A stretch of 64,000 bases of DNA, from sequence record NC_101842.1; one strand, written 5' to 3'. Under the pieces are notes generated by a model. That model was not told the DNA's origin and made no database searches. It saw only the letters and a list, made by a program, of their open reading frames with translations. Shown here piece after piece: positions 1,283-45,965 of this stretch. Numbering within the stretch: the stretch's first letter is position 1; each line of letters starts with the position of its first letter. The translations under genes were made by a program, and so were the position numbers. The DNA is from a phage.

Positions 1283-1301
1283 TACAACAAGATGAACGGT
1301 C

Positions 1302-1934: not shown

Positions 1935-2112
1935 AAGGCAACTATGCAAACGAATGGCATGGCGCGACGGAGTCGCGACATAATATAAAAGCAGTAACCA
2001 TCACCCCCGTGATAGTTTGTCTGCAAACTATTAATCAGATCATAGTTGCCTTGTATTTAGTTAATCATGACATAACAAGCAAGGCAACTATAGATCTGCT
2101 AATAGTTGCCCT
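1935..2112. repeat. two inverted-repeat pairs of AAGGCAACTAT / ATAGTTGCC
   Basis: AAGGCAACTAT at 1935-1945 and 2071-2081; inverse ATAGTTGCC(T/C)T at 2042-2052 and 2102-2112. Confidence 0.7.
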
Positions 2113-2194
2113 GCTTTTATATTATGTCATGCTAATTATAATCAGTGCGATTATTGTCATGTATAATTATTGTCATGCAAACGAATGGCATGGC
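1944..2194. repeat. 20-bp perfect direct repeat ATGCAAACGAATGGCATGGC (two copies)
   Basis: copies at 1944-1963 and 2175-2194; second preceded by tandem ATTATTGTCATG x2. Confidence 0.7.
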
Positions 2195-2204
2195 TGATTA
2201 TCGG

Positions 2205-2296
2205 TGTGTAAACAGTCAATCATGTAAATGGTTAGCATGTGAACAATCAGGAATGTAAACAATCCAGTGTGTAAACTAATAGGTGTGTAAAAGTGT
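2205..2296. repeat. six iteron-like direct repeats of consensus RTGTAAAC
   Basis: gtgtaaac, atgtaaat, atgtgaac, atgtaaac, gtgtaaac, gtgtaaaa spaced about 15 bp. Confidence 0.6.
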
Positions 2297-2854
2297 CATG
2301 TTGTGTCAGTTAGGTCACATTATGTCAGACAAGTTTTTCCCCTCTTTGTCAAGTGCTGCATGAAAAATTTACAAGCTTGTATGGTAGCATTTTTGCGGCC
2401 CTGTTTACATTCAGGAGTGTATGTATAATCCTTGGTGTGTGGGCGTTTAGACGTCTAGACGGTTGGAAGTATGCAGGTCAATATCTAATCTATTGGCTGC
2501 TAACTATATCCCACACAAATGATAAGAAATATAATTGTTATATGCGTAAACTGTAACTCATGTTATCAATCCCTGTATGTATCGCCAGTGGTGCGCATAA
2601 TGGGTATTATGTTAAATTGCCCGTAATGATAACTATTCTCACAATGATAGGTATTCTCATTCACCCCCACAAGATAGGTTGCAAATGTTGTGCCACTGTG
2701 TGAACGGCCTAGCCTATTAATTTGCCTCACTGCCTTGATATTTGAGAATTGTTATAAGAATGAGAAGTATTCCCATTTCGTCCGCCTGGCAGCACTCCTG
2801 TAGGTCAGGTCAAAATCGTGGTAGAATTGGGCCTGTTCAGATATTTCTGGCTGA

Positions 2855-4064
2855 CTCTTCAGGTCTGTGTGGGAAAAGCCAACCTCTCCGGCGGGGCATG
2901 GGGTCATGACGGGAAAATTGCAGGTCAATTAAAAAATTTACGTGGTGTATGAAGCGCTCTTCAGGTAAGGCATGTATTATGGGATGAAACCCTCTTCAGG
3001 CAATGATATTTGTGGGTGTGATATTTGCTGGAAAGCCAGATATGACGGGACTCCCGGCGGGGCAGGGGTAGTACAGACAGGGAAAATATGGAGGATGTGG
3101 TTGGGTAAATTGATCAGGCAGGTAGAGTATGGAATATGTTACAGGTATGTTAAATAGGGAGGCTGAATATCTGTAGGATTTGTGTGTAAAATCAAAGACT
3201 TAAGTGGTGTTGTGGTATTTTCTATAAATAATTCAAGTTTAATAGGTAATATTTGTCTCTATTCGCTTTGTGTGGTAAACAGATTCAGATGAGATTGGTT
3301 TACAAGTGTATACATAATATACAAATTAAAGATACAAGAAACCCCCCTCCCCCTTCGGCTACCATTCACCTTTTCCTCTGACTGGTACTTAAACACTTAT
3401 TCAGACTCTTCAGGTTATCACCCATATATCATATGGCAGTGACTGGTGTCCTCCGGCCCCTCTTTCGTCACCCGTCCGCTTCGCCATGCTAATGCCATAG
3501 CCAATGGTTCGGTTGTTCACCCTGCTCACTCAGGTGTATCTCCATACCCCTTCAAACCGAAGAGAACAGAAAACCCGAATTACTCGGTAAAAGAAAAGAG
3601 AAGAACTTAATTTTATCAGGATAGGCAAGAATGTCAAGGCATGACTGCTCACTAAACAAGCAAACAGTCATGTGTGGGAGGTAAGTGATTGTGGTGGTGG
3701 GAAATTTAGTTGAAAGATGTGCTACAGGTGCGCTTCCAGCACTTTAGCAGGGCAGCTAATTGTGTGTCAGTCCAGCGGTTCATCCTCTACTTCACTGAAA
3801 TCAATGTTCATGGTCTCTTCCCAACCATCGATCTCAGCACAAGAGTGGAGTTCTTTAGGACTTACTCCCAAAGCATCAGCAACAGAGTCCATATTTAACA
3901 CCTCTGGCAGGTATGATTCATCGAATTCAAGGTAAATCAGGCCACGAGTGTTGTCAGCTCCACCAAATATTTCTATCTTCATGAAATCTCCTCTGGAAAT
4001 GAGAGTGTGAACAGGGTTTTATACGTTCCGATGCACAGGAATTATGCACGTTTGCCTCTTCAGG
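2855..4064. repeat. dispersed 9-mer CTCTTCAGG (5 copies) plus duplicated CCGGCGGGGCA(T)GGGG block
   Basis: CTCTTCAGG at 2855, 2957, 2992, 3406, 4056; ccggcggggcatgggg at about 2886 and ccggcggggcagggg at about 3052. Confidence 0.65.
3767..3982 (-). CDS. hypothetical small acidic protein (71 aa)
   Basis: ORF track; N-terminus MKIEIFGG resembles other MK(I/V)E(I/L) small proteins in the array. Confidence 0.4.
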   Translation of the reverse strand: MKIEIFGGADNTRGLIYLEFDESYLPEVLNMDSVADALGVSPKELHSCAEIDGWEETMNIDFSEVEDEPLD

Positions 4065-4103
4065 TCATGCTTTAGCATGAGGAACCTGTGTGGGCTCGGT
4101 GCT

Positions 4104-4316
4104 TCATAGTCTACCACCCCTGAACTCTTCGTGCTCAGGCATAATAGAGAACCAGATATCTACGATGTCCTCCCACGTCAGGTCATCAGCCTCAGGATCT
4201 GTCTGGGACGAAGATGAAGAGTCCTCAGAATATAAGTTTTCCTCTTTAACTGGCTCATCCAAGGGACATATGGTCACTCCTTCGGATGTCTCTTCAGATA
4301 CATGTGTGTTGATCAT
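4104..4316 (-). CDS. hypothetical small acidic protein (70 aa)
   Basis: ORF track; very acidic, Ser-rich. Confidence 0.35.
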   Translation of the reverse strand: MINTHVSEETSEGVTICPLDEPVKEENLYSEDSSSSSQTDPEADDLTWEDIVDIWFSIMPEHEEFRGGRL

Positions 4317-4402
4317 GTTCCACCCGTGAGTATTCCGGCAACAGCCGCTATGGAAGTAATGATCATCAGGATCACCACTAAAACTTCAGACAATGTTCTC
4401 AT
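4313..4402 (-). CDS. putative 29-aa single-pass hydrophobic peptide (MRTLSEVLVVILMIITSIAAVAGILTGGT)
   Basis: hand-translated; ATGA start/stop overlap with ORF 4104-4316; promoter-like TTGACA-17-TAGTAT upstream on minus strand. Confidence 0.3.
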   Translation of the reverse strand: MRTLSEVLVVILMIITSIAAVAGILTGGT

Positions 4403-4618
4403 TGTGTATTCCATATTCTCCAAACTGTGTGGATACTATCACGGTAGCGGTAATGTGTCAACAGAAACGCCGCGAGGGTTTGGTTAAAATCCGAGCGTAT
4501 GGTGATTTGGGTCAAAACGGACGTGCGTTCTCGCTACGCTCGAAAGAGAGATTTGTTTGTAGGAAGCTCTTAAACGCTCTGTAATGAGATTATCTGTCCA
4601 AGGTATGCAATCGTGCAC

Positions 4619-4650
4619 CAGATAAAGAAAAGGACGCCACAGAGCGTCCT
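4619..4650 (-). terminator. rho-independent terminator-like hairpin (minus strand)
   Basis: 7-bp stem aggacgc/gcgtcct; T-rich tract follows on minus strand; after ORF 4675-4986. Confidence 0.45.
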
Positions 4651-4674
4651 AGGTGTCTTAAATTTGATATTTTG

Positions 4675-4986
4675 CTATACCCATGAGGGCTTATCAAGGT
4701 TGGAGTAGCTGAAAGGTGTCAAAAGGTGACTGTCAAAATCTCTCAAACTATCTAAATCTTTTTCCTCGTCCTGACACCATCTGTGCCTACATTTATTGTT
4801 GTAGTGCATAGAATGCATAGCGTTCTGCAATTTAACAGGCACAAGTGATTCAGGAGTAGATAGTATTGTTGGGTATGCCAGAACCACCTCAAACAGTGGA
4901 AACACATCGAAACTAAAGTCTACCTCTGCAGAGGTTGATGGCATGTAAGAGTATTTAGCCGCCTTTGTAGACATAATCCACCTCAC
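4675..4986 (-). CDS. hypothetical protein (103 aa)
   Basis: ORF track; 4-nt overlap with upstream ORF. Confidence 0.4.
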   Translation of the reverse strand: MRWIMSTKAAKYSYMPSTSAEVDFSFDVFPLFEVVLAYPTILSTPESLVPVKLQNAMHSMHYNNKCRHRWCQDEEKDLDSLRDFDSHLLTPFSYSNLDKPSWV

Positions 4987-5309
4987 ACAGGTTTGATAAT
5001 ACCTTTACCGAATAACTCTTCGTATCTAATCTTATCCGGATCCCACTCCTGGATAATTTCGAAGACAATATCCAACCCTGGGATAATCACTTCTCCAGTG
5101 TCGAGCTTAGCAAGAACAAAACCGGAAGGTTGAATGGTTTCCCAGTTGCGCCGATTGGAATAGAAGACCTCGAAAATATCGCCGACCTTTATCTGTTGAT
5201 CAAGATGTTCAAGATTCTCTTTCATATAGACGCAGCGGATTTTTCGTGCAGGCCATAGACCACCTGCATCACGTTCATTTAGCTCTTTTACAGTAATCGG
5301 TATACCCAT
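4983..5309 (-). CDS. hypothetical protein (108 aa)
   Basis: ORF track. Confidence 0.45.
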   Translation of the reverse strand: MGIPITVKELNERDAGGLWPARKIRCVYMKENLEHLDQQIKVGDIFEVFYSNRRNWETIQPSGFVLAKLDTGEVIIPGLDIVFEIIQEWDPDKIRYEELFGKGIIKPV

Positions 5310-5332
5310 CTCAAATCTCCTTCATAGATAGT

Positions 5333-5362
5333 AAAAAGAGGGGCCCAAGCCCCCCCTCTTTG
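5333..5362 (-). terminator. terminator-like GC hairpin flanked by A-run and T-run (possibly bidirectional)
   Basis: aaaaagagggg-cccaagcc-cccctcttt between ORFs 5366-5671 and 4983-5309. Confidence 0.45.
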
Positions 5363-5365
5363 TCA

Positions 5366-5671
5366 TTATTCTACAGAGCGTTTGAACAGAATGTCTGCCT
5401 CAGACATGTGCTCAACCTCTTCTTCGATTTTAGCGCGACGTTTTTCAGCCTCATAGCGAATATCGAACTCGGTAGCCACCAGAGATTTGATGAATTTAGG
5501 AGAATACAGGTGATCCTGCTTCTCAACGAGAATGATATCCTTAATGGCATCTTTCAGATCTTTAATCTGAAGTTGGAGTTCTACCAGTTCTTCGATTGTT
5601 TTGCGAAGGCGATCACGCTCTGCAGTGTCAGAAGGAAGAGAGGTGAACAGTTCAACTTTAGATTTAGCCAT
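5366..5671 (-). CDS. hypothetical coiled-coil protein (101 aa)
   Basis: ORF track; charged heptad-like sequence. Confidence 0.45.
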   Translation of the reverse strand: MAKSKVELFTSLPSDTAERDRLRKTIEELVELQLQIKDLKDAIKDIILVEKQDHLYSPKFIKSLVATEFDIRYEAEKRRAKIEEEVEHMSEADILFKRSVE

Positions 5672-5699
5672 AGTAAGAGTCTCCTTATATTGTTTTAAA

Positions 5700-5951
5700 T
5701 TAACGTTCTACAAAAATACCGTTCAGTTCAATAACCAGGAATTTCTGGTCTTCACTATCGTCTCGTGCCAGCACCTCACAGACGTATCGGTCATCCCCAT
5801 CATCATCGCAGTCAAATACAAGACTGAGGACTTTATCATGGTAAACCTTCGCCACTACCGCCTCGTAAGTATTGCCGATTGTGAATCCAAGATAATCTCC
5901 GATGCATTTGACAACAACATGGTCTCCAGCATTTAAGTCAATCTTCGTCAT
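5700..5951 (-). CDS. hypothetical protein (83 aa, start refined to MTKIDLNAG)
   Basis: internal ATG preceded by aaggag RBS; listed longer ORF start lacks RBS. Confidence 0.4.
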   Translation of the reverse strand: MTKIDLNAGDHVVVKCIGDYLGFTIGNTYEAVVAKVYHDKVLSLVFDCDDDGDDRYVCEVLARDDSEDQKFLVIELNGIFVER

Positions 5952-6106
5952 TACTGCGCTCCTTGGGTAATAATACTGTATGTAAAACTTTAACCAGAGA
6001 TGTGAATAACGCCCCAAAACACACCGATAGCGCTAAAACAGACAAGGCCATCATTAAAGCTTCAGTAAAATCAGTCATTCCTCACCTCTTGTTAGTCACT
6101 ATACTA

Positions 6107-6370
6107 TCATTTATCCTTGTCGTCAAGAACTTTTTTAAATCTTTCAGGGATATCTCCCGTTCTTAGATAGTTCATGACCTCGCAAGGTTCCCACTTGAAT
6201 TTCTTACAGAGCAGGGCGGCTGAGATTGTTTCATTGCGAAAAGAAAGGATATTAATATCCCACTCTGAGAACCCCAACTTCCGAAGGGTAGCTACAGAAA
6301 TCCTCACCGCAACCCAGCAGCAAAAACATGCAACAAACGCCACTGCTACAACCCACATCAGGATGTTCAT
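6107..6370 (-). CDS. hypothetical membrane protein (N-terminal TM helix)
   Basis: MNILMWVVAVAFVACFCCWVAV hydrophobic N-terminus. Confidence 0.4.
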   Translation of the reverse strand: MNILMWVVAVAFVACFCCWVAVRISVATLRKLGFSEWDINILSFRNETISAALLCKKFKWEPCEVMNYLRTGDIPERFKKVLDDKDK

Positions 6371-6459
6371 ATAAGCACCTTACTGAAATACAAGACACAG
6401 TGTTAAGGTTACTGACCAGCAAATAATTAGCAGGACCATTGCAACCTTGGCAAGATTTA

Positions 6460-6747
6460 TCATAGTGCCTCTAAGATTTCATATCCTTCAGGTCGAAATA
6501 CAAGCCACTCCGTGGCTCCGTTTGGTCGATACGCTTTATACAGAACAACCTGATCTCGGCACATGCACATGGCTACATAGTTTTCATCCACACCTGCAGC
6601 CTGCATTGCATCTTCTTCTCCGGCAACTGCTTTGCTTACAACTTCCTTGGTAGGCAGGTGTGCGATCAGCTCGTCACCATCATTAATTCCAAAATGACTG
6701 AGTTCTCCATTGGTATCTTTAATCTTAATCTTAACCAGATCTTTCAT
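6460..6747 (-). CDS. hypothetical small acidic protein (95 aa)
   Basis: ORF track; start codon overlaps upstream stop. Confidence 0.45.
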   Translation of the reverse strand: MKDLVKIKIKDTNGELSHFGINDGDELIAHLPTKEVVSKAVAGEEDAMQAAGVDENYVAMCMCRDQVVLYKAYRPNGATEWLVFRPEGYEILEAL

Positions 6748-7076
6748 TAGTCTTTCTCCAGGTTCAAAGGTCCTAAGATTTCATATGCCAGATTAGAAGT
6801 TACCAGAGGGTCTTCTGCATCTTTAGTATTGTACCACCCGTGAATAACCAGAGTCCCACTTTGTTTCATATCCAACTGGAACTGTTCTGCAGTTTCCTCA
6901 TCCAGCTCCAAGATTTCCATAAGGTATTTGATGTTAGGAAGGTATGCAGCTGTTACAGTTCCCTCCACCAAACCTTCGGGCCAACCTACATCCGGATGAC
7001 AAGTAGGAACCAGGTTGGTCAACTTAATGGTGTACGCTTTTTCTGCACGAGCCTTCAGTAACGGGTCAATCTTCAT
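6747..7076 (-). CDS. hypothetical small acidic protein (109 aa)
   Basis: ORF track; start codon overlaps upstream stop. Confidence 0.45.
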   Translation of the reverse strand: MKIDPLLKARAEKAYTIKLTNLVPTCHPDVGWPEGLVEGTVTAAYLPNIKYLMEILELDEETAEQFQLDMKQSGTLVIHGWYNTKDAEDPLVTSNLAYEILGPLNLEKD

Positions 7077-7426
7077 TATTCGTCCTCCTCTTCGGTGCCT
7101 GCTTCCAGTAATAAGTTAAGAATATCTTCTGCACAAGGCTCATAGAACTCTTGGCCTTCATTATCGATGATTTTGTAGTCATCTCCACGAATAATCAGGG
7201 GATCACTCTCAAAATTATCGAGACCTTTAACAACGACAACACGATCGATTGCCATCATTGTAAGAACTTTATCGACATCTTCCTCTGCTACACCATACTG
7301 CAGCAGAATGTCTTTGGTAGGAGGAACAGCATCCACCACAACGCCGTTACCAAAACCTTCTGGAAGTTTAGCTAAAATATCTTCCGGAACCACATTCACA
7401 TCAAAACCGGTAATTTCTACTTTCAT
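7076..7426 (-). CDS. hypothetical small acidic protein (116 aa), MKVEITG N-terminus, acidic C-tail
   Basis: ORF track; resembles neighbours 7427-7687 and 8851-9120. Confidence 0.5.
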   Translation of the reverse strand: MKVEITGFDVNVVPEDILAKLPEGFGNGVVVDAVPPTKDILLQYGVAEEDVDKVLTMMAIDRVVVVKGLDNFESDPLIIRGDDYKIIDNEGQEFYEPCAEDILNLLLEAGTEEEDE

Positions 7427-7687
7427 TTACAGCACCTCTTCGTCAACTACTTCATAAAAATGGCCTGGGATTGCAATAGCGTTCTCACCTTCACCTACAA
7501 ACACAGTTCCGTCAAGAATCAACATCATAAGAATTTCTGTAATATCCTCTTCCGGAACGTTGCCAAAACCTTTAATCAGCTCGTAGGTTGGAATATTTAC
7601 CTCTAAGATGTCACCATCTTTAGAACGGAAATCAACACCGTCCTGAATCTCTGCCGTTTCAAGGTTTTTCAATTTAATCTTCATCAA
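7427..7687 (-). CDS. hypothetical small acidic protein (86 aa)
   Basis: ORF track; MMKIKLKNLE start, EVVDEEVL end. Confidence 0.5.
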   Translation of the reverse strand: MMKIKLKNLETAEIQDGVDFRSKDGDILEVNIPTYELIKGFGNVPEEDITEILMMLILDGTVFVGEGENAIAIPGHFYEVVDEEVL

Positions 7688-7763
7688 TCGGTCTCCTGTC
7701 TTGTTAAGATGAAGGTATTATTTCACACAGGGTTGGCGTTGTCAACACCTGTGTGCAAGAAAA

Positions 7764-8159
7764 TTACTGAAACAGTGCGGATAAATTACCTTCTGGTGGG
7801 AACTTATCTGCCAAAAACGGTGTTAGCACAGTAGCCTTCTGAAGATCTGGGGTCCACTCGTTGTTCAGAACATCCCAGTAGTACGCAATGTTGCTGTGTG
7901 GGTGCCGCATTACGAACTTTTTCCCTTCGTAGTCGTCTGAAACCTCTACAGAAGAAATAACAACAGAATCTTCAAGGGTTTCTTCATAGAAAGATCCCCC
8001 TTCAAATTTCCAACGAGATGCAAGAGCCCCTGCCTTGAACGCTGCAGATAACGGACTGTCGGCAAGAACATACATTTCTTGCACTCTGTCGCTGCGATCT
8101 TTGCTTCTTACGTTGTATACAGTATCTGAGCTATACTCAACACGGTATAGGCTTACCAT
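7764..8159 (-). CDS. hypothetical protein (131 aa), paralogue of 9966-10364
   Basis: shared motif HP(H/D)S..YYW/HYW....(E/K)TWTP with ORF 9966-10364. Confidence 0.5.
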   Translation of the reverse strand: MVSLYRVEYSSDTVYNVRSKDRSDRVQEMYVLADSPLSAAFKAGALASRWKFEGGSFYEETLEDSVVISSVEVSDDYEGKKFVMRHPHSNIAYYWDVLNNEWTPDLQKATVLTPFLADKFPPEGNLSALFQ

Positions 8160-8518
8160 TACCGCACCTCCTCAATAACTTCCACATCTGAACCTACCAC
8201 AAATGCAAAAGGACAGGTTTCATGAAAGACATCTGGATCGCCGCCAAGCTTGCTAACAATCTCTCCACCACTAATAAACACAAGCTCACCGATATTCATC
8301 AGATTGCTGAAATAGTACCCATAATGATTAAAGAATGCAGCAGGGTCAGGTAGACTGGTAGCCTCAAGCACTACATCGGTTGAGGTTACTTTCTTATCAT
8401 AACCTCTCGCCTTTTGAGATGCAAGATCTGCAGAATCCTCAGGAGACCGGAGATGCACAGGAATTGTTTCACCAATAAAGCGTACTTTCATATTATCACC
8501 CAACAACCATAGCTTCAA
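8159..8518 (-). CDS. hypothetical small protein (119 aa), member of MK(V/L)-...VEVIEE family
   Basis: C-terminal GSDVEVIEE resembles GSDADIVEL and GEDVEIVED of ORFs 10377-10631 and 10621-10848. Confidence 0.5.
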   Translation of the reverse strand: MKLWLLGDNMKVRFIGETIPVHLRSPEDSADLASQKARGYDKKVTSTDVVLEATSLPDPAAFFNHYGYYFSNLMNIGELVFISGGEIVSKLGGDPDVFHETCPFAFVVGSDVEVIEEVR

Positions 8519-8759
8519 AAGGAGTCATGAACGAATAAACGGCATCATCATCTGCTTCAGGGAATGCTCCCAAAGACTTCATATCTGAACCCTTGACAAA
8601 TACAAGGTTTTGATCAAAGGCTTCTTGGGGGTCAATCCGATACATATTTCGTAGAATATCGCTTACCTCCTCATCAAGAGGTGAGTATGCTGTGCACGTT
8701 TTTCCGATCAAGCTTTGAGAATCAGGGTATCCACCTGAAGTTTTAAAATAAACAATCAT
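8496..8759 (-). CDS. hypothetical small protein (87 aa)
   Basis: ORF track; overlaps upstream ORF by 23 nt. Confidence 0.4.
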   Translation of the reverse strand: MIVYFKTSGGYPDSQSLIGKTCTAYSPLDEEVSDILRNMYRIDPQEAFDQNLVFVKGSDMKSLGAFPEADDDAVYSFMTPFEAMVVG

Positions 8760-8850
8760 ATAGTATCACCTCTGGTAAGAGATTGGGATTCCTTTCCCAC
8801 AAATAATTACAAATCTTCCTTATCGAGGAAGTATGCTAATCCAAGCAGGA

Positions 8851-9120
8851 TTATTCCTCTACAATCTCATACACATCAGGAGTTACAATCAATTCTTCTC
8901 CGTTACCCGGTGCAACAAACACCACCAAACCTTCAGGTGTGTGCTTTTTAGCCATCTCGATAACATCTTCTCGCAGAGCTGGCTCCATCAGATCAAAACC
9001 TTCACCCAGGGCATCACGAACCACCTTCATATAGTCCACTGGTTGTGCTTCAACAATCATGCCTTCAACCAGTCCACAGTTTTTGTCTGCCAGCTCAGTT
9101 TTGAATAATTTAATTTTCAT
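8851..9120 (-). CDS. hypothetical small acidic protein (89 aa)
   Basis: ORF track; MKIKLFKTEL start, YEIVEE end. Confidence 0.5.
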   Translation of the reverse strand: MKIKLFKTELADKNCGLVEGMIVEAQPVDYMKVVRDALGEGFDLMEPALREDVIEMAKKHTPEGLVVFVAPGNGEELIVTPDVYEIVEE

Positions 9121-9257
9121 TTAGAGGTCTCCTCAATTATTTGATATTAATAGCCGTAACCTAACACATTAACTACAACTGCGATTGCAAACATAATTTC
9201 AAAGCATGCAATCTCTACATTTGGGACTAATTTCTTAATCACACCCATTGTAGCACC

Positions 9258-9575
9258 TCATTCTCCAAAGTCAATCTTTACTTTGCCTTTCCCCTTACCT
9301 TTCTTTCCACCGCATTTAGCCAGCTGACGTGCTGCAACATCTACCATACGGTCAGTTGCCTCGTAAGCATCACTACCTTTAGCCTTGGCAATAACTTCTT
9401 TTCCAGAATTGTCAAAAATGAACGCCATAACTTCCTGGTGATCATTTTCAACTTTTACACTCACACGTGCATAGTTGGCAGAGGGGTGCAAACGCTCCAG
9501 TTTAGACATTTTGTTGGAAATGAAAGACACCATACCTTCAGTGATTTCTACGTTGCCAGTGATTTCAATTTGCAT
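9258..9575 (-). CDS. hpf: ribosome hibernation promoting factor / RaiA (YfiA) family homologue
   Basis: MQIEITGNVEIT...KLE...VSVKVE...KAKGSDAYEATDRMVDVAARQL aligns along its length with E. coli HPF (MQLNITGNNVEIT...KLEQY...VVLKVEK...SAEGQDMYAAIDGLIDKLARQL); Lys/Gly-rich C-tail. Confidence 0.75.
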   Translation of the reverse strand: MQIEITGNVEITEGMVSFISNKMSKLERLHPSANYARVSVKVENDHQEVMAFIFDNSGKEVIAKAKGSDAYEATDRMVDVAARQLAKCGGKKGKGKGKVKIDFGE

Positions 9576-9657
9576 AACGTGTTCCTTTTAAAGAAGAGGG
9601 AACCAAACCCTCTTTGAAAACAATGATACTAAATCTGAAGCGTTGTGTCAACAGTTT

Positions 9658-9948
9658 TTACAGATTGTTGTCGATAGTTTTTAAAATATCCACAGCAAGA
9701 TCTGCCATTTTTCGAACATACTCTGCAAACTCAACAGGATCCTTGATCAAAGAATTCACAGGGTCGTACCCTAGAGCGTTCAAAATGGCTGCAGCATCTA
9801 CAACCTTCTCATCATTTGCGAAGATCTCTCCATCAAACTTGTAGGTCCATTTTGAGTCAATCTTGGCAGGGAAGGATTGGTCAACGCTTGTTACACCATC
9901 CTTTTTAAACGCTCCGGTGTTATCAGTGTCCAGAACTAAATCCATCAT
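9658..9948 (-). CDS. hypothetical protein (96 aa)
   Basis: ORF track. Confidence 0.45.
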   Translation of the reverse strand: MMDLVLDTDNTGAFKKDGVTSVDQSFPAKIDSKWTYKFDGEIFANDEKVVDAAAILNALGYDPVNSLIKDPVEFAEYVRKMADLAVDILKTIDNNL

Positions 9949-9965
9949 GTTAGTACCCCACTGTT

Positions 9966-10364
9966 TCAGTTTAGCTTTTCTTCAACAACCCCATAGCTCG
10001 GGACAGAGTCAAGAGCTTTCTGGTTTAAAAGTGGTGTAGCAGAATCTGCAAACGGTGTCCAAGTTTTTGTTCTGGCATTCCAGTAATGCTTCACTCTGGA
10101 ATCTGGATGCACTATAACAAAAACTTTTTCACTTGTCAACACATTAATTTCTTCTACACCCTTGCTGATAATTTCTCCGTCATAGCCCCCAGTCTGGTAT
10201 CCTTCGTACCAGGTTCTTGCATAGGCATAGCCAGCTTGCCAGCATGCAGCCTCCTCCGAGGTGGAGACTACGTAGAAGTCTTTCTCAAATTCTGGAATAC
10301 GCCCTTGCTTTATGCTCCAAGCTCCGCGAATTTTCATTGTAACTTTGAACAGTTTATTTTTCAC
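9966..10364 (-). CDS. hypothetical protein (132 aa), paralogue of 7764-8159
   Basis: shared HPDS..HYW....TWTP motif. Confidence 0.5.
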   Translation of the reverse strand: MKNKLFKVTMKIRGAWSIKQGRIPEFEKDFYVVSTSEEAACWQAGYAYARTWYEGYQTGGYDGEIISKGVEEINVLTSEKVFVIVHPDSRVKHYWNARTKTWTPFADSATPLLNQKALDSVPSYGVVEEKLN

Positions 10365-10376
10365 AACGGTTACCCA

Positions 10377-10631
10377 TCACAGCTCTACAATATCTGCATC
10401 TGACCCTACCCCAAAGGCATAATAGGACTCTTCCCCGAAATAATATTCAGGTGCACCAGCGGTGATCAGGTCTGCTCCTAAGATAAACACTACGTTGTGG
10501 CCTACATAACTGTGATGTTGCCGAACAGGATCATCCCACGGCAACCCTTCAAAGTATACCGCAGGAACGACCTTTCCCTTCAGGAAGGATTGTCCCAAGT
10601 AGACGTTAGAATCAAGAATTTTAACCTTCAT
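10377..10631 (-). CDS. hypothetical small protein (84 aa), MKVKILDS family
   Basis: near-identical N-terminus pattern to 10621-10848 (MMKVKVLDSSFYIGQ) and 14279-14512. Confidence 0.5.
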   Translation of the reverse strand: MKVKILDSNVYLGQSFLKGKVVPAVYFEGLPWDDPVRQHHSYVGHNVVFILGADLITAGAPEYYFGEESYYAFGVGSDADIVEL

Positions 10632-10848
10632 GATTGTCCTCCACTATCTCTACATCCTCACCTAGGGCAAAGTTGTAGGTCCACTGACTGTCAAAGCATT
10701 CCTGAGATGCACCAGCGGCAATAAGATCTGCCCCTTTTATTTTTAAAAGGTCGGGGTAATCTTCGTTAGGGACAGCAGTAAACACTTTCCCCACTAAGGG
10801 CTCCTGACCAATATAGAAGCTTGAATCTAAAACTTTAACTTTCATCAA
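10621..10848 (-). CDS. hypothetical small protein (75 aa), MKVKVLDS family
   Basis: paralogue of 10377-10631. Confidence 0.5.
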   Translation of the reverse strand: MMKVKVLDSSFYIGQEPLVGKVFTAVPNEDYPDLLKIKGADLIAAGASQECFDSQWTYNFALGEDVEIVEDNHEG

Positions 10849-11132
10849 CGGTCTCCATCAGGTGGTTGTGGGACGTAAACACTGTTACGAATATCGTCCG
10901 CAGTATAGTAATAAGTGTCTCCAACCCTATCTCTGGCTGCAATGTACTCTGCTATACCAATAAGTGCCATTGATTTGGTGGCGTATCTTCCCCACTCGTT
11001 AGCTCCCCAGTAGAATTTAGACCAGTAAGGAATAAGACCGAACAAATATACCTTTTGACGAACTTCCCAGTAAGTGCCTTTTCCGACAAGTTTAAACTCG
11101 ACTTCACTACTGTTAATCTTTTTCATTATCAA
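10845..11132 (-). CDS. hypothetical protein (95 aa), aromatic-rich
   Basis: ORF track. Confidence 0.45.
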   Translation of the reverse strand: MIMKKINSSEVEFKLVGKGTYWEVRQKVYLFGLIPYWSKFYWGANEWGRYATKSMALIGIAEYIAARDRVGDTYYYTADDIRNSVYVPQPPDGDR

Positions 11133-11425
11133 TCTCCCTCTACCGTGGTAGGATTGTCAGTAAGAAATTGAGCATTGGCTGGAGGCACGCCTGACATTTT
11201 CCACACAACCATAAGTTTGTAACCAGGCACTCTATTAAGTGCAGATCGAGTAGAGTTTGTGCACGTATACTTTCGCTTTCCAAACCCGTTCTCCATCATA
11301 ATCCAGTACCCAGTATCTTTGTCACCAGGTATCGGTAGACCACCTTCATCAACCCACTGAATGGACCACGGCACGATGGCTACAGCTTTATATTTAAACT
11401 TTTTAAACCACTCAAAAAGTTTCAT
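11129..11425 (-). CDS. hypothetical protein (98 aa)
   Basis: ORF track. Confidence 0.45.
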   Translation of the reverse strand: MKLFEWFKKFKYKAVAIVPWSIQWVDEGGLPIPGDKDTGYWIMMENGFGKRKYTCTNSTRSALNRVPGYKLMVVWKMSGVPPANAQFLTDNPTTVEGD

Positions 11426-11520
11426 AATTCAGCCTCGCATAGACATAATCACTATAAACAGGCAAACAATGAATCCGAATGCCACGCCACCCATAAACGT
11501 TAATATTGATGCAATCATAG

Positions 11521-11706
11521 TCAATCAGCCTCGCTTGGCAACTCTTCTACCTTAACATGCCGAAAAGTGTTACCGTAATGGTTGATCCATGACATCAGCT
11601 CGCTTTCTTGCTCTTCCTCTGGGATGAACTCTCGAATGCTGACAAGTTTTAAGAAAACCCAATCACAATCTGCACCCATTCTACCAGACAGGCAATAGTG
11701 CTTCAT
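11521..11706 (-). CDS. hypothetical small protein (61 aa)
   Basis: ORF track. Confidence 0.35.
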   Translation of the reverse strand: MKHYCLSGRMGADCDWVFLKLVSIREFIPEEEQESELMSWINHYGNTFRHVKVEELPSEAD

Positions 11707-11724
11707 AAAACCCTCCCGCCTGGT

Positions 11725-11919
11725 TTAGAATATTGCTTCTTCCATTGCGCCTGAGAGCAACAAAGAGGTGATCTGGCTAACATTCATCTCAGACTCTACT
11801 TCCTCCCCTTTGAAAGGTTCGCGGCAGAATAGGACTGTTTCAGGACTTTTACTTCGAACAATATAATACAAATCATTCAATGTGTTGTAGTAATAAGTGT
11901 TAAAACGTAAGTTTTTCAT
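11725..11919 (-). CDS. hypothetical small protein (64 aa)
   Basis: ORF track. Confidence 0.35.
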   Translation of the reverse strand: MKNLRFNTYYYNTLNDLYYIVRSKSPETVLFCREPFKGEEVESEMNVSQITSLLLSGAMEEAIF

Positions 11920-12203
11920 TTTCTAGTCCTCTTCTTAGATTTTTGGGGAGAAACGCTTTCTGCAATACGAGACAGACGTTCTTCTGAAGCCTTACCTACT
12001 CCAGGTTTTTTGAGTGGATTATCTTTATGACCACAATCCAACTGGATATTGGATACCTCTCCAACTTTGTAAGTCAATTCTAGCAAAAGGTTGTCGTCCT
12101 TGTCAAATGTTTTTACGATAAATTTTTTATCGTTCTCCTGAACTTCATATCTGGTACCTGCAGTATACAGCATGGTGCCATCAGCATAGGATATCCAAAT
12201 CAT
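11916..12203 (-). CDS. hypothetical protein (95 aa), basic C-tail
   Basis: ORF track. Confidence 0.45.
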   Translation of the reverse strand: MIWISYADGTMLYTAGTRYEVQENDKKFIVKTFDKDDNLLLELTYKVGEVSNIQLDCGHKDNPLKKPGVGKASEERLSRIAESVSPQKSKKRTRK

Positions 12204-12547
12204 TGAGCCTCCTTTTGCTGCAACAGCATTAACTCTTTGTTAGAAATCTTTACTGCTGTTTTTATTGTTCCATCTTCACGAAACCACGACCAGAACTCTA
12301 CAGTGTCACCACTATCAAGTAAAGCATGCCCATGGTAAAAATCTTTGTCCTTAGACAGTTTCTCATCTATATCTGCATCAACACATTCGTGATCCATAGC
12401 ATTTTGCCTGAACGCATCGGTTATGCCAATGCACGCCTTGCTCTCAAGACTGGTATATCCGATATCTTTTAATTCAGTTTCCCAAGTCCAGTACCCTATA
12501 AAAGCTAAAACAGCTACCCACAGTAATAACGTTTTAATCTTTGGCAT
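12200..12547 (-). CDS. hypothetical exported or membrane-anchored protein (N-terminal signal anchor)
   Basis: MPKIKTLLLWVAVLAFIGYWTW hydrophobic N-terminus. Confidence 0.45.
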   Translation of the reverse strand: MPKIKTLLLWVAVLAFIGYWTWETELKDIGYTSLESKACIGITDAFRQNAMDHECVDADIDEKLSKDKDFYHGHALLDSGDTVEFWSWFREDGTIKTAVKISNKELMLLQQKEAQ

Positions 12548-12609
12548 TCTCTCTACCTCTTTCTTAGTTTATTTCACTATGGCACATCCTTTGTGCCATA
12601 TCTCAACTA

Positions 12610-13080
12610 CTATTTAAATAGTAGTTCAAAATAGTGCAAAATTAACAGAAGTTGAACTACACCTAGTGCAACGGCGAGTATGTTAATCTTAGAATCGAAA
12701 AACTTCTTAACTTTTACTCTAAAAGGTTCCTTAATGTCCTTTACGATCCTATCTATAGATGACCTCATATCTCTGATTACCATCCTGAACATTAAAGACG
12801 GATGCTCCCCCATCTCTGTAACGGAATCGAAAACATACTCTCTTCGGTCATAAGGGCCGCCAGCTCTGCGTATTAACCTCTCCACAGAGACCTCGAACGT
12901 CACACCTGTAACGTAATCATCTATAACAAGTCGTGACGGGTCTTTACCTTTACTATCAAGAGGTATCAAAGTTATCTTTCCAGATTTTGTTAAAATTTCC
13001 CCTTTTTCAAGCAAGGTGTACCAATGCTCTCTGCCAAGACTGTTGAGGCACGTTTTTACATATTTAACAAACATCGTCAC
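12610..13080 (-). CDS. hypothetical tail-anchored membrane protein (C-terminal TM helix)
   Basis: C-terminal ILAVALGVVQLLLILHYFELLFK. Confidence 0.45.
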   Translation of the reverse strand: MTMFVKYVKTCLNSLGREHWYTLLEKGEILTKSGKITLIPLDSKGKDPSRLVIDDYVTGVTFEVSVERLIRRAGGPYDRREYVFDSVTEMGEHPSLMFRMVIRDMRSSIDRIVKDIKEPFRVKVKKFFDSKINILAVALGVVQLLLILHYFELLFK

Positions 13081-13280
13081 CCCTCATCGCACGTCTGATA
13101 TAACCACTCTATAAAATCTTGATACCATTCGCCCTCTGAGCGCTCCGTAGGCCAATAATCTTCACCCTCTCGTGCATTAAAATCTGAGTATTCAACTTTC
13201 CACTCCTTTACCAGCTCGTGGAGAAGGTTTTCAGCCTGCTCTAAAGATTTATTTTTTACCATTGCTGTCTCCTTTTTCAA
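13077..13280 (-). CDS. hypothetical small protein (67 aa)
   Basis: ORF track. Confidence 0.4.
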   Translation of the reverse strand: MKKETAMVKNKSLEQAENLLHELVKEWKVEYSDFNAREGEDYWPTERSEGEWYQDFIEWLYQTCDEG

Positions 13281-13481
13281 GATAGTTATACATCAGAACT
13301 GCACCACCTAAGATGGCTACCAGTAACAATACCCCAGATAGCATCTCAATAAACATGGCTTGAAACACTGGAAGGCCTCCCTAAATTAACGCACCATTTT
13401 AAATACATGCTCTTTTCCCATAAAGGTGCCTGGCTAAGATCTGCGTAGAACGCAATCTCTTTAAGAACAGTATAAACAGTT

Positions 13482-13718
13482 TTAGGTGCGGTCTCCATCC
13501 CTACCCTCCTTTTTCTCCTTACGGATATTCTTGTAGTAATCAACCAGGCACATTATCACGATGAAGATAACAACAGGCCAAAAAGGTGCAGCAGTGATGA
13601 TGGTGATAAAATCATCAAACTTCACCCTTCGTCTGGACACGATGCATACACCTGTCAAGAATACCGCTGTTATAACGGACATTACCAGGTAACCTATTAG
13701 CACAACATTTATACTCAT
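13482..13718 (-). CDS. small two-TMD membrane protein with charged C-terminus (holin-like topology)
   Basis: two hydrophobic segments then KNIRKEKKEGRDGDRT; not adjacent to the endolysin. Confidence 0.3.
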   Translation of the reverse strand: MSINVVLIGYLVMSVITAVFLTGVCIVSRRRVKFDDFITIITAAPFWPVVIFIVIMCLVDYYKNIRKEKKEGRDGDRT

Positions 13719-13748
13719 TGGTCCTCCCTTTGTAGGTTAAATTGTATA

Positions 13749-14282
13749 CTACAAATGGCAACTGAGGGTGTCAAGAAAATTATCCCGTTCTTTCTCAGAG
13801 TTTTCATGGGTGTAGCTGAAAAACATATCGAGAATAACCTTATTGATATATTCCAGCTCCTCTGTGTTCAGATGCTTAGCAGGATCTACAATGACATCCC
13901 AAATATCATACAGACCACACTCATGATACCCATAACGCCACTCAATTGTCAAGCTGAGCGGCAAATCTTTACCGTCACAAACAACCTTCCATCTACATAT
14001 GTTGGTATCTGGTCGTATCTGTGCACGGTACACCTGTACAAAATCCAATTTGAATTTGAGGTACTCGTCATACAATTTAAGCACAAAGCTCTCGATTTGT
14101 GGAGACACTTTTGCAGCAAACTGTGCGTATTTGTACTTGCACTGGATGATCTTTCTGCGTTTTGCAGTTAAATTTTTTGCCGCCAGTTGTTCTTCAGTGT
14201 ATCTCCACCTACGATCAACAAACGCAACAGGGTCTTTGTCCCCATAGAGGTCTTCCCAGTTAATCAGAAGCATACCTGTCAC
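13749..14282 (-). CDS. hypothetical protein (177 aa)
   Basis: ORF track. Confidence 0.45.
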   Translation of the reverse strand: MTGMLLINWEDLYGDKDPVAFVDRRWRYTEEQLAAKNLTAKRRKIIQCKYKYAQFAAKVSPQIESFVLKLYDEYLKFKLDFVQVYRAQIRPDTNICRWKVVCDGKDLPLSLTIEWRYGYHECGLYDIWDVIVDPAKHLNTEELEYINKVILDMFFSYTHENSEKERDNFLDTLSCHL

Positions 14283-14512
14283 TCCTCCACAACTTCAAGG
14301 CCTTTACCGCCTCGCTCTGGCAGATTACTTAAAGATAGGTAATACATATAATCAGGAGAGATCCTGCCAGACTCTGCACCTGCAGCTAGTAAATCCTTCC
14401 CTTTAACCAGGACAACATTCTCGTTTGCAGATAGCTGTTTTGCTTCCACAATTTTACCAACACAGTCAACCAAGGAAGGGTACCCTAAATCTGTAAGAAA
14501 TTTAACTTTCAT
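14279..14512 (-). CDS. hypothetical small protein (77 aa), MKVKFLTD family
   Basis: MKVKFLTDLGYP...LEVVEE resembles 10377-10631 family. Confidence 0.5.
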   Translation of the reverse strand: MKVKFLTDLGYPSLVDCVGKIVEAKQLSANENVVLVKGKDLLAAGAESGRISPDYMYYLSLSNLPERGGKGLEVVEE

Positions 14513-14551
14513 GCTACCTCCTGCTTCTACCGTCCCTGGTAAGATAAATTA

Positions 14552-14953
14552 TTACTGAACAGAGCGCGGGGCTAGGAAGGATAACTCTTCTAAAGAGAAG
14601 ATTTCATTTCCTACCACCCAAGTTGCTGGATCATCTGGGTCAACAGGCTGGATAATCATTACCTCATCCGCCTCGCACACACGTTTCCCACCTATAGTAG
14701 CGGAGTCAGCCACTAGCATACGAGGCTCTTCAGAAATGCACAGGTAACCTCCTCGGCCCACTGTTCCTTCCACAGGATCCTGCCCTTTGACCACAATGAA
14801 TACCTTCTCTCCTGTGGCGATATTACTTTGCACACTAACAGTTTGACCAACTTTAGATGTACCGATCTTGGTGGCTTCAAACATTAAATCCCGAATTACT
14901 GTTGCATAGTTGCCGGACACTTTCTTACCTTCTTTAGTAATCTCAATCTTCAT
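14552..14953 (-). CDS. hypothetical protein (133 aa), MKIEITKEG N-terminus
   Basis: ORF track. Confidence 0.45.
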   Translation of the reverse strand: MKIEITKEGKKVSGNYATVIRDLMFEATKIGTSKVGQTVSVQSNIATGEKVFIVVKGQDPVEGTVGRGGYLCISEEPRMLVADSATIGGKRVCEADEVMIIQPVDPDDPATWVVGNEIFSLEELSFLAPRSVQ

Positions 14954-15225
14954 AATCTAGGCTCCTTAAATGAATCTATGTAATCAATTAAATCCCAAGC
15001 ATCGCGATGGGCTGTCAGAGGGTATACTTCTCCGAGAGGGATCATAGCAATAAGTCTATCAAAAACCCAGTCTGGACGCAACATTTTATGGTGATATTCC
15101 CACTCACCTTCCACAGATTTTTTCTGAGTGATCAGGATCTCTGTGTAGTGTTTCGACTGTCTTGAGTAGATTGAAAATGACTTGTACATAAATGACCCCC
15201 TCTTGTTGAAAACAACAATACACAA
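14950..15225 (-). CDS. hypothetical protein (91 aa)
   Basis: ORF track. Confidence 0.4.
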   Translation of the reverse strand: MCIVVFNKRGSFMYKSFSIYSRQSKHYTEILITQKKSVEGEWEYHHKMLRPDWVFDRLIAMIPLGEVYPLTAHRDAWDLIDYIDSFKEPRL

Positions 15226-15510
15226 CTACCAGGTTACTGTCAAGTAGGCAACCGTATTATTTTTCTCTGGGGAGATGCCAACAACATCTACCTGCAGACC
15301 TCCTGCCCTTAAATCTCCAACAATGTGCGGGAAGTAATCTGAGAGATGCGATGGTAGATTTATCGAAAATCCGCACCCCAGAAAGCCTGCTAACGCTTTA
15401 TTTTGTATCTCCCCTACAATCGCATCATAAATAGAGTTAAGCTCGTCAGGAAGCGTTACAGGACGTTTTAGCGCTAACTGGTGTAATTTGTCCTTAGCAC
15501 TCATTTTCAT
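15226..15510 (-). CDS. hypothetical protein (start refined to MKMSAKDKL, ATGA overlap with upstream stop)
   Basis: upstream gene ends at 15507, so start at 15510 is the first ATG compatible with coupling. Confidence 0.4.
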   Translation of the reverse strand: MKMSAKDKLHQLALKRPVTLPDELNSIYDAIVGEIQNKALAGFLGCGFSINLPSHLSDYFPHIVGDLRAGGLQVDVVGISPEKNNTVAYLTVTW

Positions 15511-16040
15511 TTCAGGTCTACCTCTGGAGGTGCCAACCACATAAATGGCGGCAAGTCTAAACGGTTTTTCTTATCCCAGACAAAATATGCATATGCTTGC
15601 CCGTCAGTTCTGCCATTTGATTGAAAAGATGGACGCTTAGATATTGTGATCACAGTGGTAGGTGCATTATCAAGCCACCATTCAAATCTGGCTTTGCTTT
15701 CCAGAAAATTAAGACGCAAAAGCATAATAACTACGTCAGCATCTTTCAACGCCTTGTCTACAAACTCACGAGCCAAACTGTATGGTGGGTTGGTGATAAT
15801 ACAGTCAACATGGTTGTATTCTGTATTCAGATAGTCAACACCTTCTTGGATTTCTCCCCATGCAGATCCTAACGGCATACGTGAGTAGAACACACCTGAG
15901 GCACTATTCCTGCAAGGCTCTAAATAGGTCCAGTCTTCTGGGAACGTAATAAGGTCATACAGCCCTTCTGCACACCACTCCGGTGTCACATACTCATCGT
16001 AAGCGTTACGTTGTTCATCAGGTTTTCTAGCACAAGTCAT
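15507..16040 (-). CDS. DNA N6-adenine methyltransferase (small, NPPY motif)
   Basis: YVTPEW, EPCRNSASG, IITNPPYS motifs. Confidence 0.6.
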   Translation of the reverse strand: MTCARKPDEQRNAYDEYVTPEWCAEGLYDLITFPEDWTYLEPCRNSASGVFYSRMPLGSAWGEIQEGVDYLNTEYNHVDCIITNPPYSLAREFVDKALKDADVVIMLLRLNFLESKARFEWWLDNAPTTVITISKRPSFQSNGRTDGQAYAYFVWDKKNRLDLPPFMWLAPPEVDLK

Positions 16041-16091: not shown

Positions 16092-17138
16092 TTAAGCTTC
16101 TTCGACAATTCCTGCACCCAGGATTTTTTCATTGAGCTCTTTTGCTGTTTTAATAATATTGTCCACCAGACGCTTGCGAGTCTTATCTTTTACCTTAACC
16201 TCTTCACCGCCGTTCAGGGTTGTCTTCAATTGGGACAGAATGTCTTGAAGTTCAACGACAGAGAATCGCTGCAGATCTTCTGAGGTAATCTCACCTAAGG
16301 CAATCTTAATGGTCTCACCACTTTCCATCTGCAGATTTAGGAACACAGTGTGAACATCACCTTTCGAACCAACCGCTTTCGCAGATTCAACAGCATGAAC
16401 TAGCTCATCTAAAGAGGTGCACTGGTGAATCTCAGGAAGACCTGCTTCACCTAACACGCCTTCATCACCTTTTGCCAGAAGCTTTTTAGGTTTTTGTCCG
16501 TTCTGGATGCGCTGTATGTTACCTTCATCCAGAATGATGGCTCCAGTTCGAGCTGCCAGCTCCTCTCCGTCCAACCACACTTCACCACCAGCTGTGATGG
16601 ATGCGATCTCATCTTCTGTCAGCACCCCACCGTAGTATTTTTCGATCAGGCGTTCAAAACGTTTTTTCCAGTAGCTGACCTGAGTATTCATGTTCACACC
16701 GTTACCATAAGTGCCACCTTGATAGTAGTGGAACATAAATTCTGTGTCCGGAGCCACAGTGCGTTCTTTACAACCCAGCCATAAGATTGTTCCCGCAGAG
16801 CAGCACATCCCTTCAGCATGTGCAACAACGCTTGCCTGAGACTCGCGGAATGCCTGTAGATAAGCCATTGCAATGTGCACGCAACCACCAGGGCTATTGA
16901 TGATCACCCGAATGCTTTCTTCCGGCTGAGCCATACGGATCGTCTGCAGACGAGACATATGATCCTGCAGGTCTTCCAAATCGTCGATATAAAGAACGTG
17001 GTCAACAACAGGTGTTGGGTAGCTGTATGTTTCCATGATACCGCCCGGCATACCAAACATTTTATTACTCATAGGTTCGAAACCGTTCTGTTTTTCTTTC
17101 ATGCCGTGTACCATGGTGCTGCGAGGTGTTAAATTCAT
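16092..17138 (-). CDS. ClpP / S14-family serine peptidase homologue with about 150-aa C-terminal extension
   Basis: VIINSPGGCV...GMCCSAGTILWLG...FMFHYYQGG aligns with E. coli ClpP INSPGG...GQAASMGAFLL...VMIHQPLGG. Confidence 0.65.
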   Translation of the reverse strand: MNLTPRSTMVHGMKEKQNGFEPMSNKMFGMPGGIMETYSYPTPVVDHVLYIDDLEDLQDHMSRLQTIRMAQPEESIRVIINSPGGCVHIAMAYLQAFRESQASVVAHAEGMCCSAGTILWLGCKERTVAPDTEFMFHYYQGGTYGNGVNMNTQVSYWKKRFERLIEKYYGGVLTEDEIASITAGGEVWLDGEELAARTGAIILDEGNIQRIQNGQKPKKLLAKGDEGVLGEAGLPEIHQCTSLDELVHAVESAKAVGSKGDVHTVFLNLQMESGETIKIALGEITSEDLQRFSVVELQDILSQLKTTLNGGEEVKVKDKTRKRLVDNIIKTAKELNEKILGAGIVEEA

Positions 17139-40591: not shown

Positions 40592-40599
40592 AAGTGTCC

Positions 40600-45961: not shown

Positions 45962-45965
45962 AATT

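Follow-up and report, generated by a model that had tools for sequence, protein, structure and literature searches.

What is the function of a long run of small genes, most of them annotated no further than 'hypothetical', in the genome of a phage? The question is raised by sequence record NC_101842.1, of which a stretch of 64,000 nucleotides was analysed (hereafter the window; all positions refer to it). Here, positions 3767-15225 of the minus strand are filled with 35 open reading frames (ORFs) of 46-177 aa (median 95), which an initial inspection of the letters without database searches (the sequence-only reading) had described as about 35 small acidic ORFs containing paralogue families and had likened to host-takeover or anti-defence arsenals. 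Following up on this description, we infer, with a probability of roughly 55%, a block of accessory genes that is transcribed by the host RNA polymerase and encodes host-directed binding proteins, i.e. a host-takeover or accessory role. All block genes discussed below lie on the minus strand.

Small but genuine genes

The best match to the 11.6-kb region containing the block is Escherichia phage inoa (99.7% identity), which belongs to the genus Vequintavirus (rV5-like myoviruses). Altogether, 122 deposited phage genomes match the region, 115 of them with 90-99.7% identity over at least 80% of its length, and in every annotated record, among them inoa, Gotham and rV5, it appears as a one-strand run of 33-40 'hypothetical protein' genes. 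These ORFs are genuine protein-coding genes under purifying selection: the annotated starts are ATG in 34 of the 35 genes, a Shine-Dalgarno (SD) motif (GGAG, GAGG or AGGA) lies upstream of 30, and the length-weighted ratio of nonsynonymous to synonymous substitutions (dN/dS) is 0.10 against Aya, the most divergent genome (dS ~0.40), and 0.19 against rV5.

While the number and small size of the ORFs were as described before, their acidity stands only as a moderate enrichment. The median isoelectric point (pI) is 4.78 in the block versus 5.7 for the 65 other ORFs of the window, the fraction of net-negative proteins (25 of 35 in the block) is equal in both sets (71%), and neutral or basic proteins number ten in the block, including several membrane proteins. 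Similarly, the frequent joining of start and stop codons was borne out, since 12 of the 34 gene junctions overlap by 1-4 nt or abut, but its supposed ATGA form was not: eight junctions are 4-nt NTGA overlaps (in longest-ORF coordinates), only three of which are literally ATGA, with three TAATG and one TAAATG in addition. The claim that the block is devoid of recognisable enzymatic motifs holds in domain searches. Both Pfam (all 35 ORFs, at E 0.05) and NCBIfam returned HPF as the sole match, identifying 9258-9575 as a clear Ribosomal_S30AE/HPF domain protein, and PHROGs assigned the block ORFs to families of unknown function throughout, except for phrog_639 and phrog_7821. No RNA family was found in the block by an Rfam search.

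Three paralogue families

Paralogy was assessed by all-versus-all BLASTP and phmmer as well as by leave-one-out hidden Markov models (HMMs), with which all 719 stop-to-stop ORFs in the window were searched. The sequence-only reading would have been overturned by profile searches without significant mutual similarity and without homologues in other phages; instead, both paralogue families and homologues in other phages were found. Twelve of the 35 genes fall into three families with two (A), five (B) and five (C) members, and the family HMMs detected no further paralogue elsewhere in the 64 kb.

Family A consists of 7764-8159 (131 aa) and 9966-10364 (132 aa), the pair first noticed through a shared motif. 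They are 27% identical over their full length (E ~1e-10), conserve HPxS..YW..WTP and both match phrog_7379 ('unknown function') over its full length.

Family B unites the four proteins previously grouped by their termini, namely 10377-10631 (84 aa), 10621-10848 (74 aa from 10845), 14279-14512 (77 aa) and 8159-8518 (110 aa from the annotated start 8491), with a fifth member that had been missed, 8496-8759 (87 aa). Each left-out member was recovered as the top match (E 2e-14 to 3e-5), with E-values of 2.4e-14 for 10377-10631, which is in tandem with 10621-10848, 1.3e-5 for 8496-8759, 2.4e-5 for 14279-14512 and 3.3e-5 for 8159-8518. In PHROGs, 10377, 10621 and 14279, and weakly 8496, match phrog_5009 ('unknown function'), and 8159-8518 is placed apart in phrog_13661.

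Family C comprises 6460-6747 (95 aa; leave-one-out E 4.7e-4), 7076-7426 (116 aa with an extra acidic C-terminal tail and a net charge of -21; E 2.2e-3), 7427-7687 (85 aa from the annotated start 7684; E 0.014) and 8851-9120 (89 aa; E 3.8e-4), each of which was the top match (E 4e-4 to 0.014), plus 6747-7076 (109 aa) as a marginal member that also ranked first, at E 0.14. PHROGs splits this family into five single-gene families (phrog_12155, phrog_12359, phrog_12794, phrog_11868 and phrog_12457). A third group had been anticipated as proteins starting MK(I/V)E(I/L) with acidic tails; the group exists, but its N-terminus does not define it because 3767-3982 and 14552-14953 both start with MKIEI and lie outside family C: the former was not recovered by the leave-one-out search with the family C profile, and the latter matched none of the C members pairwise in the all-versus-all comparison. 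More generally, lysine occupies residue 2 in 40% of the block ORFs versus 11% elsewhere in the window, which explains why many unrelated ORFs start with 'MK'.

The paralogy of family A and most of family B is thus already implicit in PHROGs, from which the relationship in fold between B and C described below is absent. At the level of shallow profile comparisons, neither B versus C nor B versus A was significant.

A shared small-barrel fold

AlphaFold2 models built with the family alignments were confident for family B (10621-10845; pLDDT 89.7, pTM 0.78) as well as family C (8851-9120; pLDDT 93.3, pTM 0.74). Both are predicted to contain five antiparallel strands in identical order that form a small barrel, and with structural matches to SH3/KOW/PsaE-type domains the models fall among the SH3-like small beta-barrels, a structural class rather than a homologous family. 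Both models also have a long loop after strand 1 and a C-terminal strand of the form (Y/E)(I/V)(I/V)E. In the C model, three helices (residues 30-60) are inserted between strands 2 and 3, and insertions at the same position grow longer through the B members 10377, 8496 and 8159, reaching ~45 aa in 8159-8518. A deeper profile-profile comparison with hhalign aligned strands 1-3 of the two families in register, albeit not significantly (P 0.006, probability 6%). Judged by sequence, common ancestry of B and C is plausible but unproven.

All ten members of the two families are acidic, with pI values of 4.05-5.07 and net charges of -2 to -21. A fold search of BFVD with family C returned only an rV5-like paralogue (E 3e-3), and sequence searches of the PDB with the A, B and C profiles gave no match at E below 0.08; no characterised relative emerged from either. 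Structure prediction had been suggested as a route to anti-restriction or anti-CRISPR folds, yet the B and C models match no such fold in the PDB or BFVD.

Promoters of the host type

A scan of positions 3701-15300 for near-consensus sigma70 sites, defined as at least 5/6 matches in the -35 hexamer and at least 10/12 overall, yielded 11 sites on the coding strand, as compared to 1.5 +/- 1.2 in dinucleotide shuffles (maximum 6 in 200), and none on the other strand. One of the predicted promoters is found at the head of the block (15215-15243, TTGACA-17-TATTGT), and three are intragenic (13923-13952, TTGACA-18-TATCAT; 12077-12106, TTGACA-18-TAGAAT; 10111-10139, TTGACA-17-TATAGT). For two sites, the rV5 record has an annotated promoter at the same place: the site upstream of the HPF gene (9623-9651, TTGACA-17-TATCAT) corresponds to P144 and the intergenic site at 7717-7745 (TTGACA-17-AATAAT) to P150. 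The remaining ones map to 13746-13774 (TTGACA-17-TAGTAT), 11514-11541 (TTGCCA-16-TATGAT), 9247-9274 (TTGACT-16-TACAAT), 6098-6126 (TTGACG-17-TATAGT) and 4433-4461 (TTGACA-17-TAGTAT, conserved in four relatives). Together, these sites cut the block into approximately ten short units, and rV5, Aya, Mangalyan and Gotham have kept their hexamers despite a dS of ~0.4, the few changes staying within the consensus. The exact late-promoter motif of rV5 does not occur in the block; in the window it was found only in the plus-strand block, at 55573 and 59094. Because of these 11 conserved, strong sigma70-like promoters on the coding strand, the block is probably transcribed by unmodified host RNA polymerase, i.e. 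early.

Stable within the genus, replaced beyond it

Across inoa, Gotham, rV5, Mangalyan, Aya and V18, the block genes are 85-100% identical and the copy number is fixed at five B, five C and two A genes. Together with a dN/dS of ~0.1, this argues against the 'tandem diversification' of the sequence-only reading if it is understood as a continuing arms race. Larger changes do occur. EduardKellenberger (BASEL Bas59), which was isolated on K-12, has lost the 3.8 kb corresponding to 10052-13876 of the window and thereby 12 whole genes, including two B members; at 16869-17336 of its genome, a fusion gene annotated as 'putative glycosidase' combines the head of 13749-14282 with the C-terminal tail of 9966-10364. 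This 3.8-kb part of the block is therefore naturally dispensable. Further gene losses and fusions are seen in V18. In the sister genus Seunavirus, GAP31 carries more than 40 small genes at the equivalent position downstream of ClpP, yet retains only four of the 35 block genes (14950, 13077, 12610 and 11129), arranged colinearly, and no member of families A, B and C was found there.

Searches of 5.8 billion proteins found 35 clusters for family B, six for A and 53 for C, nearly all on contigs of ~135 kb or fragments. For family A, 1.84 billion representatives were scanned exhaustively with HMMER, which contributed only two new, diverged full-length homologues, each ~40% identical to one of the Vequintavirus paralogues; no closer deposited phage was found for either. 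Two other matches to family A, P0098 (a low-complexity repeat protein) and P0099 (a eukaryotic Ig-repeat protein), were set aside as repeat artefacts.

By tblastn over 50,697 phage records, families A and B were found only in Vequintavirus (>93% identity), with one exception. This B subtype, P0031, is 48% identical over its full length to 14279-14512, its closest relative, and is carried by temperate coliphages of the mEp021 group and by 13 of 5,426 complete E. coli genomes. There it is one of a series of small ORFs that separate the Q antiterminator from the holin, in the manner of a moron, and is the only gene that this series has in common with the block.

Several recombinants were also recovered. 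P0014 combines the N-terminal half of the 10621 type with the C-terminal half of the adjacent 10377 type and replaces both tandem B genes in a 133-kb contig (3001-3213); P0028 joins a lambdoid-type B N-terminal half to a C-terminal half of the 10621 type; and in P0040, family A is fused to the tail of 9658-9948. P0092 has a DUF7399-like N-terminus followed by a C-terminal half of the 6747 type, and its DUF7399 match was dropped as a Pfam link for family C since the N-terminus is unrelated. Families A, B and C are therefore essentially genus-specific and fixed in copy number, yet recombine with each other and with their neighbours.

A proposed host-directed accessory role

The favoured scenario can be outlined as follows. 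Soon after infection, unmodified host RNA polymerase would transcribe the block, and most of its products would adjust host physiology as stoichiometric binders without enzymatic activity. The partners of the acidic SH3-like barrels would be host proteins rather than nucleic acids, with a separate target for each paralogue, and these barrels would act alongside the HPF homologue (on translation), a DsbA-like DNA-binding regulator (on transcription) and small membrane proteins. Such a role would matter in natural hosts and be dispensable on laboratory K-12. The acidity of all ten barrels argues for protein instead of nucleic-acid targets, purifying selection and fixed copy number argue for a settled function of each paralogue, and the presence of a family B copy in lambdoid phages argues that it functions independently of the remaining rV5 genome.

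Several points weigh against this scenario. Literature searches for anti-defence work or host-takeover screens in Vequintavirus yielded nothing specific. The block is heterogeneous, encompassing the HPF homologue, the DsbA-like regulator, membrane proteins and one virion-abundant protein; as the homologue of 12610-13080 was abundant in virion preparations, it is not purely non-structural either. Strong conservation throughout the genus shows that the genes matter but cannot separate host-directed from phage-directed roles, and the sequence comparison does not establish that B and C descend from a common ancestor. Lastly, promoter content does not prove early timing, since sigma70-type promoters are spread over the whole rV5 genome according to its authors (PMC3606486) and a literature search found no transcriptome of any rV5-like phage.

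Alternatively, the block might be a dedicated anti-defence arsenal whose paralogues are diversified inhibitors of restriction, CRISPR, abortive infection or signalling, which we regard as possible but unlikely. The products are indeed small, acidic, free of enzyme domains and encoded promoter-proximally, parts of the block are dispensable on K-12, a host without most defence systems, and its content is replaced in the sister genus; the moron-like occurrence of a family B gene in temperate phages and the chimeras between paralogues fit as well. Yet, the gene set is near-invariant in more than 115 genomes, unlike typical hypervariable counter-defence islands. Moreover, no similarity to solved or catalogued anti-defence proteins was found in PHROGs, NCBIfam, PDB sequences (A, B and C) or PDB and BFVD folds (B and C), a set of searches that did not include a dedicated anti-defence HMM library. 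An anti-restriction role in particular is weakened because the BASEL study described Vequintavirinae as 'exceptionally susceptible' to restriction-modification (RM) systems, apparently without effective protection (PMC8594841). A role against non-RM defence systems would be compatible with the data.

A bolder variant of the host-directed reading, which is speculative and distinctly unlikely, would make B and C one hitherto unrecognised superfamily of acidic SH3-like 'decoy' or adaptor proteins that expanded to ten copies in Vequintavirus and was exchanged with temperate mEp021-like coliphages, each protein neutralising a different host protein, possibly from non-RM defence, stress, translation or proteolysis machinery. 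If true, the block would represent a compact library of new host-factor inhibitors.

It is also conceivable that the B and C barrels are nucleic-acid-binding regulators of gene expression. The precedent comes from phage T4, whose small-barrel early proteins include the LSm-like GoF, MotB.1 and Frd.2, a family with a proposed RNA function, as well as the DNA-binding MotB with its KOW/SH3-like N-domain (PMC12152347, PMC7827196); the HPF homologue and the DsbA-like regulator among the neighbours would be in keeping with such a role. This T4 set appears to be the closest published analogue of the B and C barrels. In both cases, several small proteins of a large lytic coliphage are dissimilar in sequence but share a predicted barrel of the SH3/Sm superfold, and the B and C proteins further resemble the non-essential T4 early proteins in that their function is at most hypothesised. 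However, no sequence relation to the LSm-like set is detectable. Membership of that family is characterised by an N-terminal alpha-helix plus five bent strands and a relation to GoF, and the B and C models have no such helix. The barrels also form larger sets (5 + 5) than in T4, are partly arranged in tandem and include a subtype common to temperate phages. With pI values and charges that are unfavourable for RNA or DNA binding in all ten proteins, no Sm/LSm or KOW signal in Pfam even at E 0.05, and no RNA effect of either wild-type GoF or MotB.1 in the T4 study, we consider regulation through nucleic-acid binding improbable.

Even less probable, and very unlikely overall, is a service to the phage itself, be it as virion-associated proteins, in assembly or as replication accessories. 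Strong purifying selection, genus-wide conservation and the contiguity of the block with DNA-metabolism genes could be understood in this way. Set against them, only one product, the homologue of 12610-13080, has been reported in virions, 12 genes including this one are missing from a viable phage, a family B gene is present in an unrelated lambdoid background, and the sister genus does without 31 of the 35 genes while having the same virion architecture.

Finally, the idea that many of these ORFs, being short and mostly 'hypothetical', are chance reading frames whose similarities are compositional artefacts is refuted by dN/dS, the SD motifs, orthologues in more than 115 genomes, the leave-one-out tests, in which the left-out paralogue ranks first among 719 ORFs, and the confident AlphaFold models.

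Relation to other small-gene regions

Dense small genes that often overlap and lie behind strong host-type promoters are likewise encountered in the early regions of T4, the pre-early genes of T5 and the 'moron' regions of lambdoid phages, and like the block these clusters can be dispensed with in the laboratory and give way to other genes in related genera. The block differs from them in the unusual stability of its content within the genus (85-100% identity at a fixed copy number); its early timing is read from promoters only. Blocks of this kind are commonplace in large lytic phages; current concepts are unchanged, and the gain in annotation is incremental.

Even so, few E. coli phages are isolated as often as the rV5-like ones, which also find use in typing and therapy cocktails and in which about a quarter of the genes encode small 'hypothetical' proteins. 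Twelve block genes collapse into three families and perhaps two folds, ten of them being predicted SH3-like barrels with a defined variable loop. Along with the dispensable 3.8 kb, these families provide a short, concrete list for functional screens and genome minimisation. In addition, that lambdoid prophages carry a family B gene suggests a host-directed function that is complete in itself and accessible to study in a simpler system.

The other genes of the block

The HPF/RaiA ribosome hibernation factor homologue, 9258-9575 (105 aa), matches PF02482 (Ribosomal_S30AE) at E 1.1e-12 over positions 1-83 of 88 (48.9 bits against a cut-off of 23.7) and TIGR00741 with 41.6 bits against 40.9, which identifies it as a member of the HPF/YfiA family; its score is below the cut-off of the equivalog model of E. 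coli HPF (51 versus 125 bits). It shares the full Ribosomal_S30AE domain with the bacterial short HPF/YfiA (RaiA) proteins and differs from them in being phage-encoded and in its basic, Lys/Gly-rich tail. The gene is present in all relatives examined, with its own conserved near-consensus promoter (9651-9623), and no experimental work on a phage HPF was found in the literature.

The second gene with a functional assignment, 5366-5671, encodes a 101-aa coiled-coil protein that matches phrog_639 ('transcriptional regulator'; the DsbA-like regulator of T4) at E 1.4e-19 over positions 1-94 of 95, i.e. over its full length. The annotation of its homologue reads 'transcriptional regulator' in rV5 and 'DsbA' in Mangalyan; the gene is the most conserved one of the block (99-100% identity in all relatives), and Pfam gave only a sub-threshold GapR-like match.

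A third exception is 12610-13080 (156 aa), a basic protein with a hydrophobic C-terminal segment that matches phrog_7821 ('virion structural protein'). Its homologue ORF133 of rV5 was abundant in virion mass spectrometry (PMC3606486). Like 12610-13080, the adjacent 13077-13280 (acidic) is kept in GAP31, where 14950-15225 (annotated start 15189), the first gene of the block, is weakly conserved. Further hydrophobic segments are found in the membrane-like 5938-6078 (46 aa) and 13482-13718 as well as at the N-termini of 6107-6370 (87 aa) and 12200-12547. The latter is one of six unrelated small genes inside the segment missing from EduardKellenberger, the others being 10845-11132, 11129-11425, 11521-11706, 11725-11919 and 11916-12203.

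At the promoter-distal end, the last gene of the block, 3767-3982 (71 aa, pI 4.05; phrog_12108), and 4104-4316 (70 aa, Ser/Asp/Glu-rich; phrog_16356) encode very acidic proteins, 4104-4316 being the least constrained block gene with a dN/dS of 0.51 against rV5. They are preceded by a pair of genes without assigned function, 4675-4986 (annotated start 4974) and 4983-5309 (phrog_12072 and phrog_12418 for the two), and by 5700-6017 (annotated start 5951), whose product is beta-rich and acidic. The acidic 9658-9948 (96 aa; phrog_12029) is among the more variable genes, with 82-88% identity in relatives. A homologue of 13749-14282 (177 aa) is annotated as 'putative glycosidase' in BASEL phage records; Pfam gave no glycosidase signal for the window protein. 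The small gene 13346-13543 and 14552-14953 (133 aa), the second MKIEI protein outside family C, complete the set.

Genomic setting and further observations

The block constitutes the promoter-distal third of a long minus-strand gene block (approximately rV5 genes 120-158). Upstream on the same strand lie genes for an adenine methyltransferase (15507-16040), a ClpP-like protease (16092-17138), an exonuclease, thymidylate synthase, aerobic and anaerobic ribonucleotide reductases and PhoH. The ClpP-like protease has 348 aa, of which the Clp domain occupies only residues 59-168; its long C-terminal extension is without a domain match, and homologues exist in many large phages, including ICP1 and KVP40. 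In the rV5 genome paper, where the paralogues go unmentioned, the transcription unit is named 'genes 82-163' and a non-coding box is drawn beyond its end (PMC3606486).

This 'non-coding' box corresponds to 1300-3766, where ~2.4 kb past the last block gene contain no ORF longer than 70 aa. A strong sigma70-like promoter at 3637-3610 (TTGACA-16-TAAAAT, with TG) is directed into it, and the sequence CTCTTCAGG occurs in five copies on the plus strand at 2855-4064, out of seven in the whole window versus 0.6 expected. An Rfam search of 1300-3766 gave no match, and in some records (Gotham) the terminal repeat of the genome adjoins this region on the far side. Among the relatives, 18 records titled 'Campylobacter phage' (MG0656xx, host C. 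jejuni) share 97-98% identity with the 11.6-kb region; their host assignment looks doubtful.

At 40000-48000, around the strand-switch point and the tRNA genes, strong sigma70-like sites cluster a second time, with 11 on the plus strand, and the GC skew changes sign near 42 kb. Within the cluster of seven tRNA genes, ARAGORN calls a 99-nt 'tRNA-???' with a four-base anticodon (atcc) at 46356-46454 on the plus strand, which Rfam scores as tRNA with only 35.5 bits; possibly, this is an unusual tRNA whose anticodon loop is expanded or which contains an intron.

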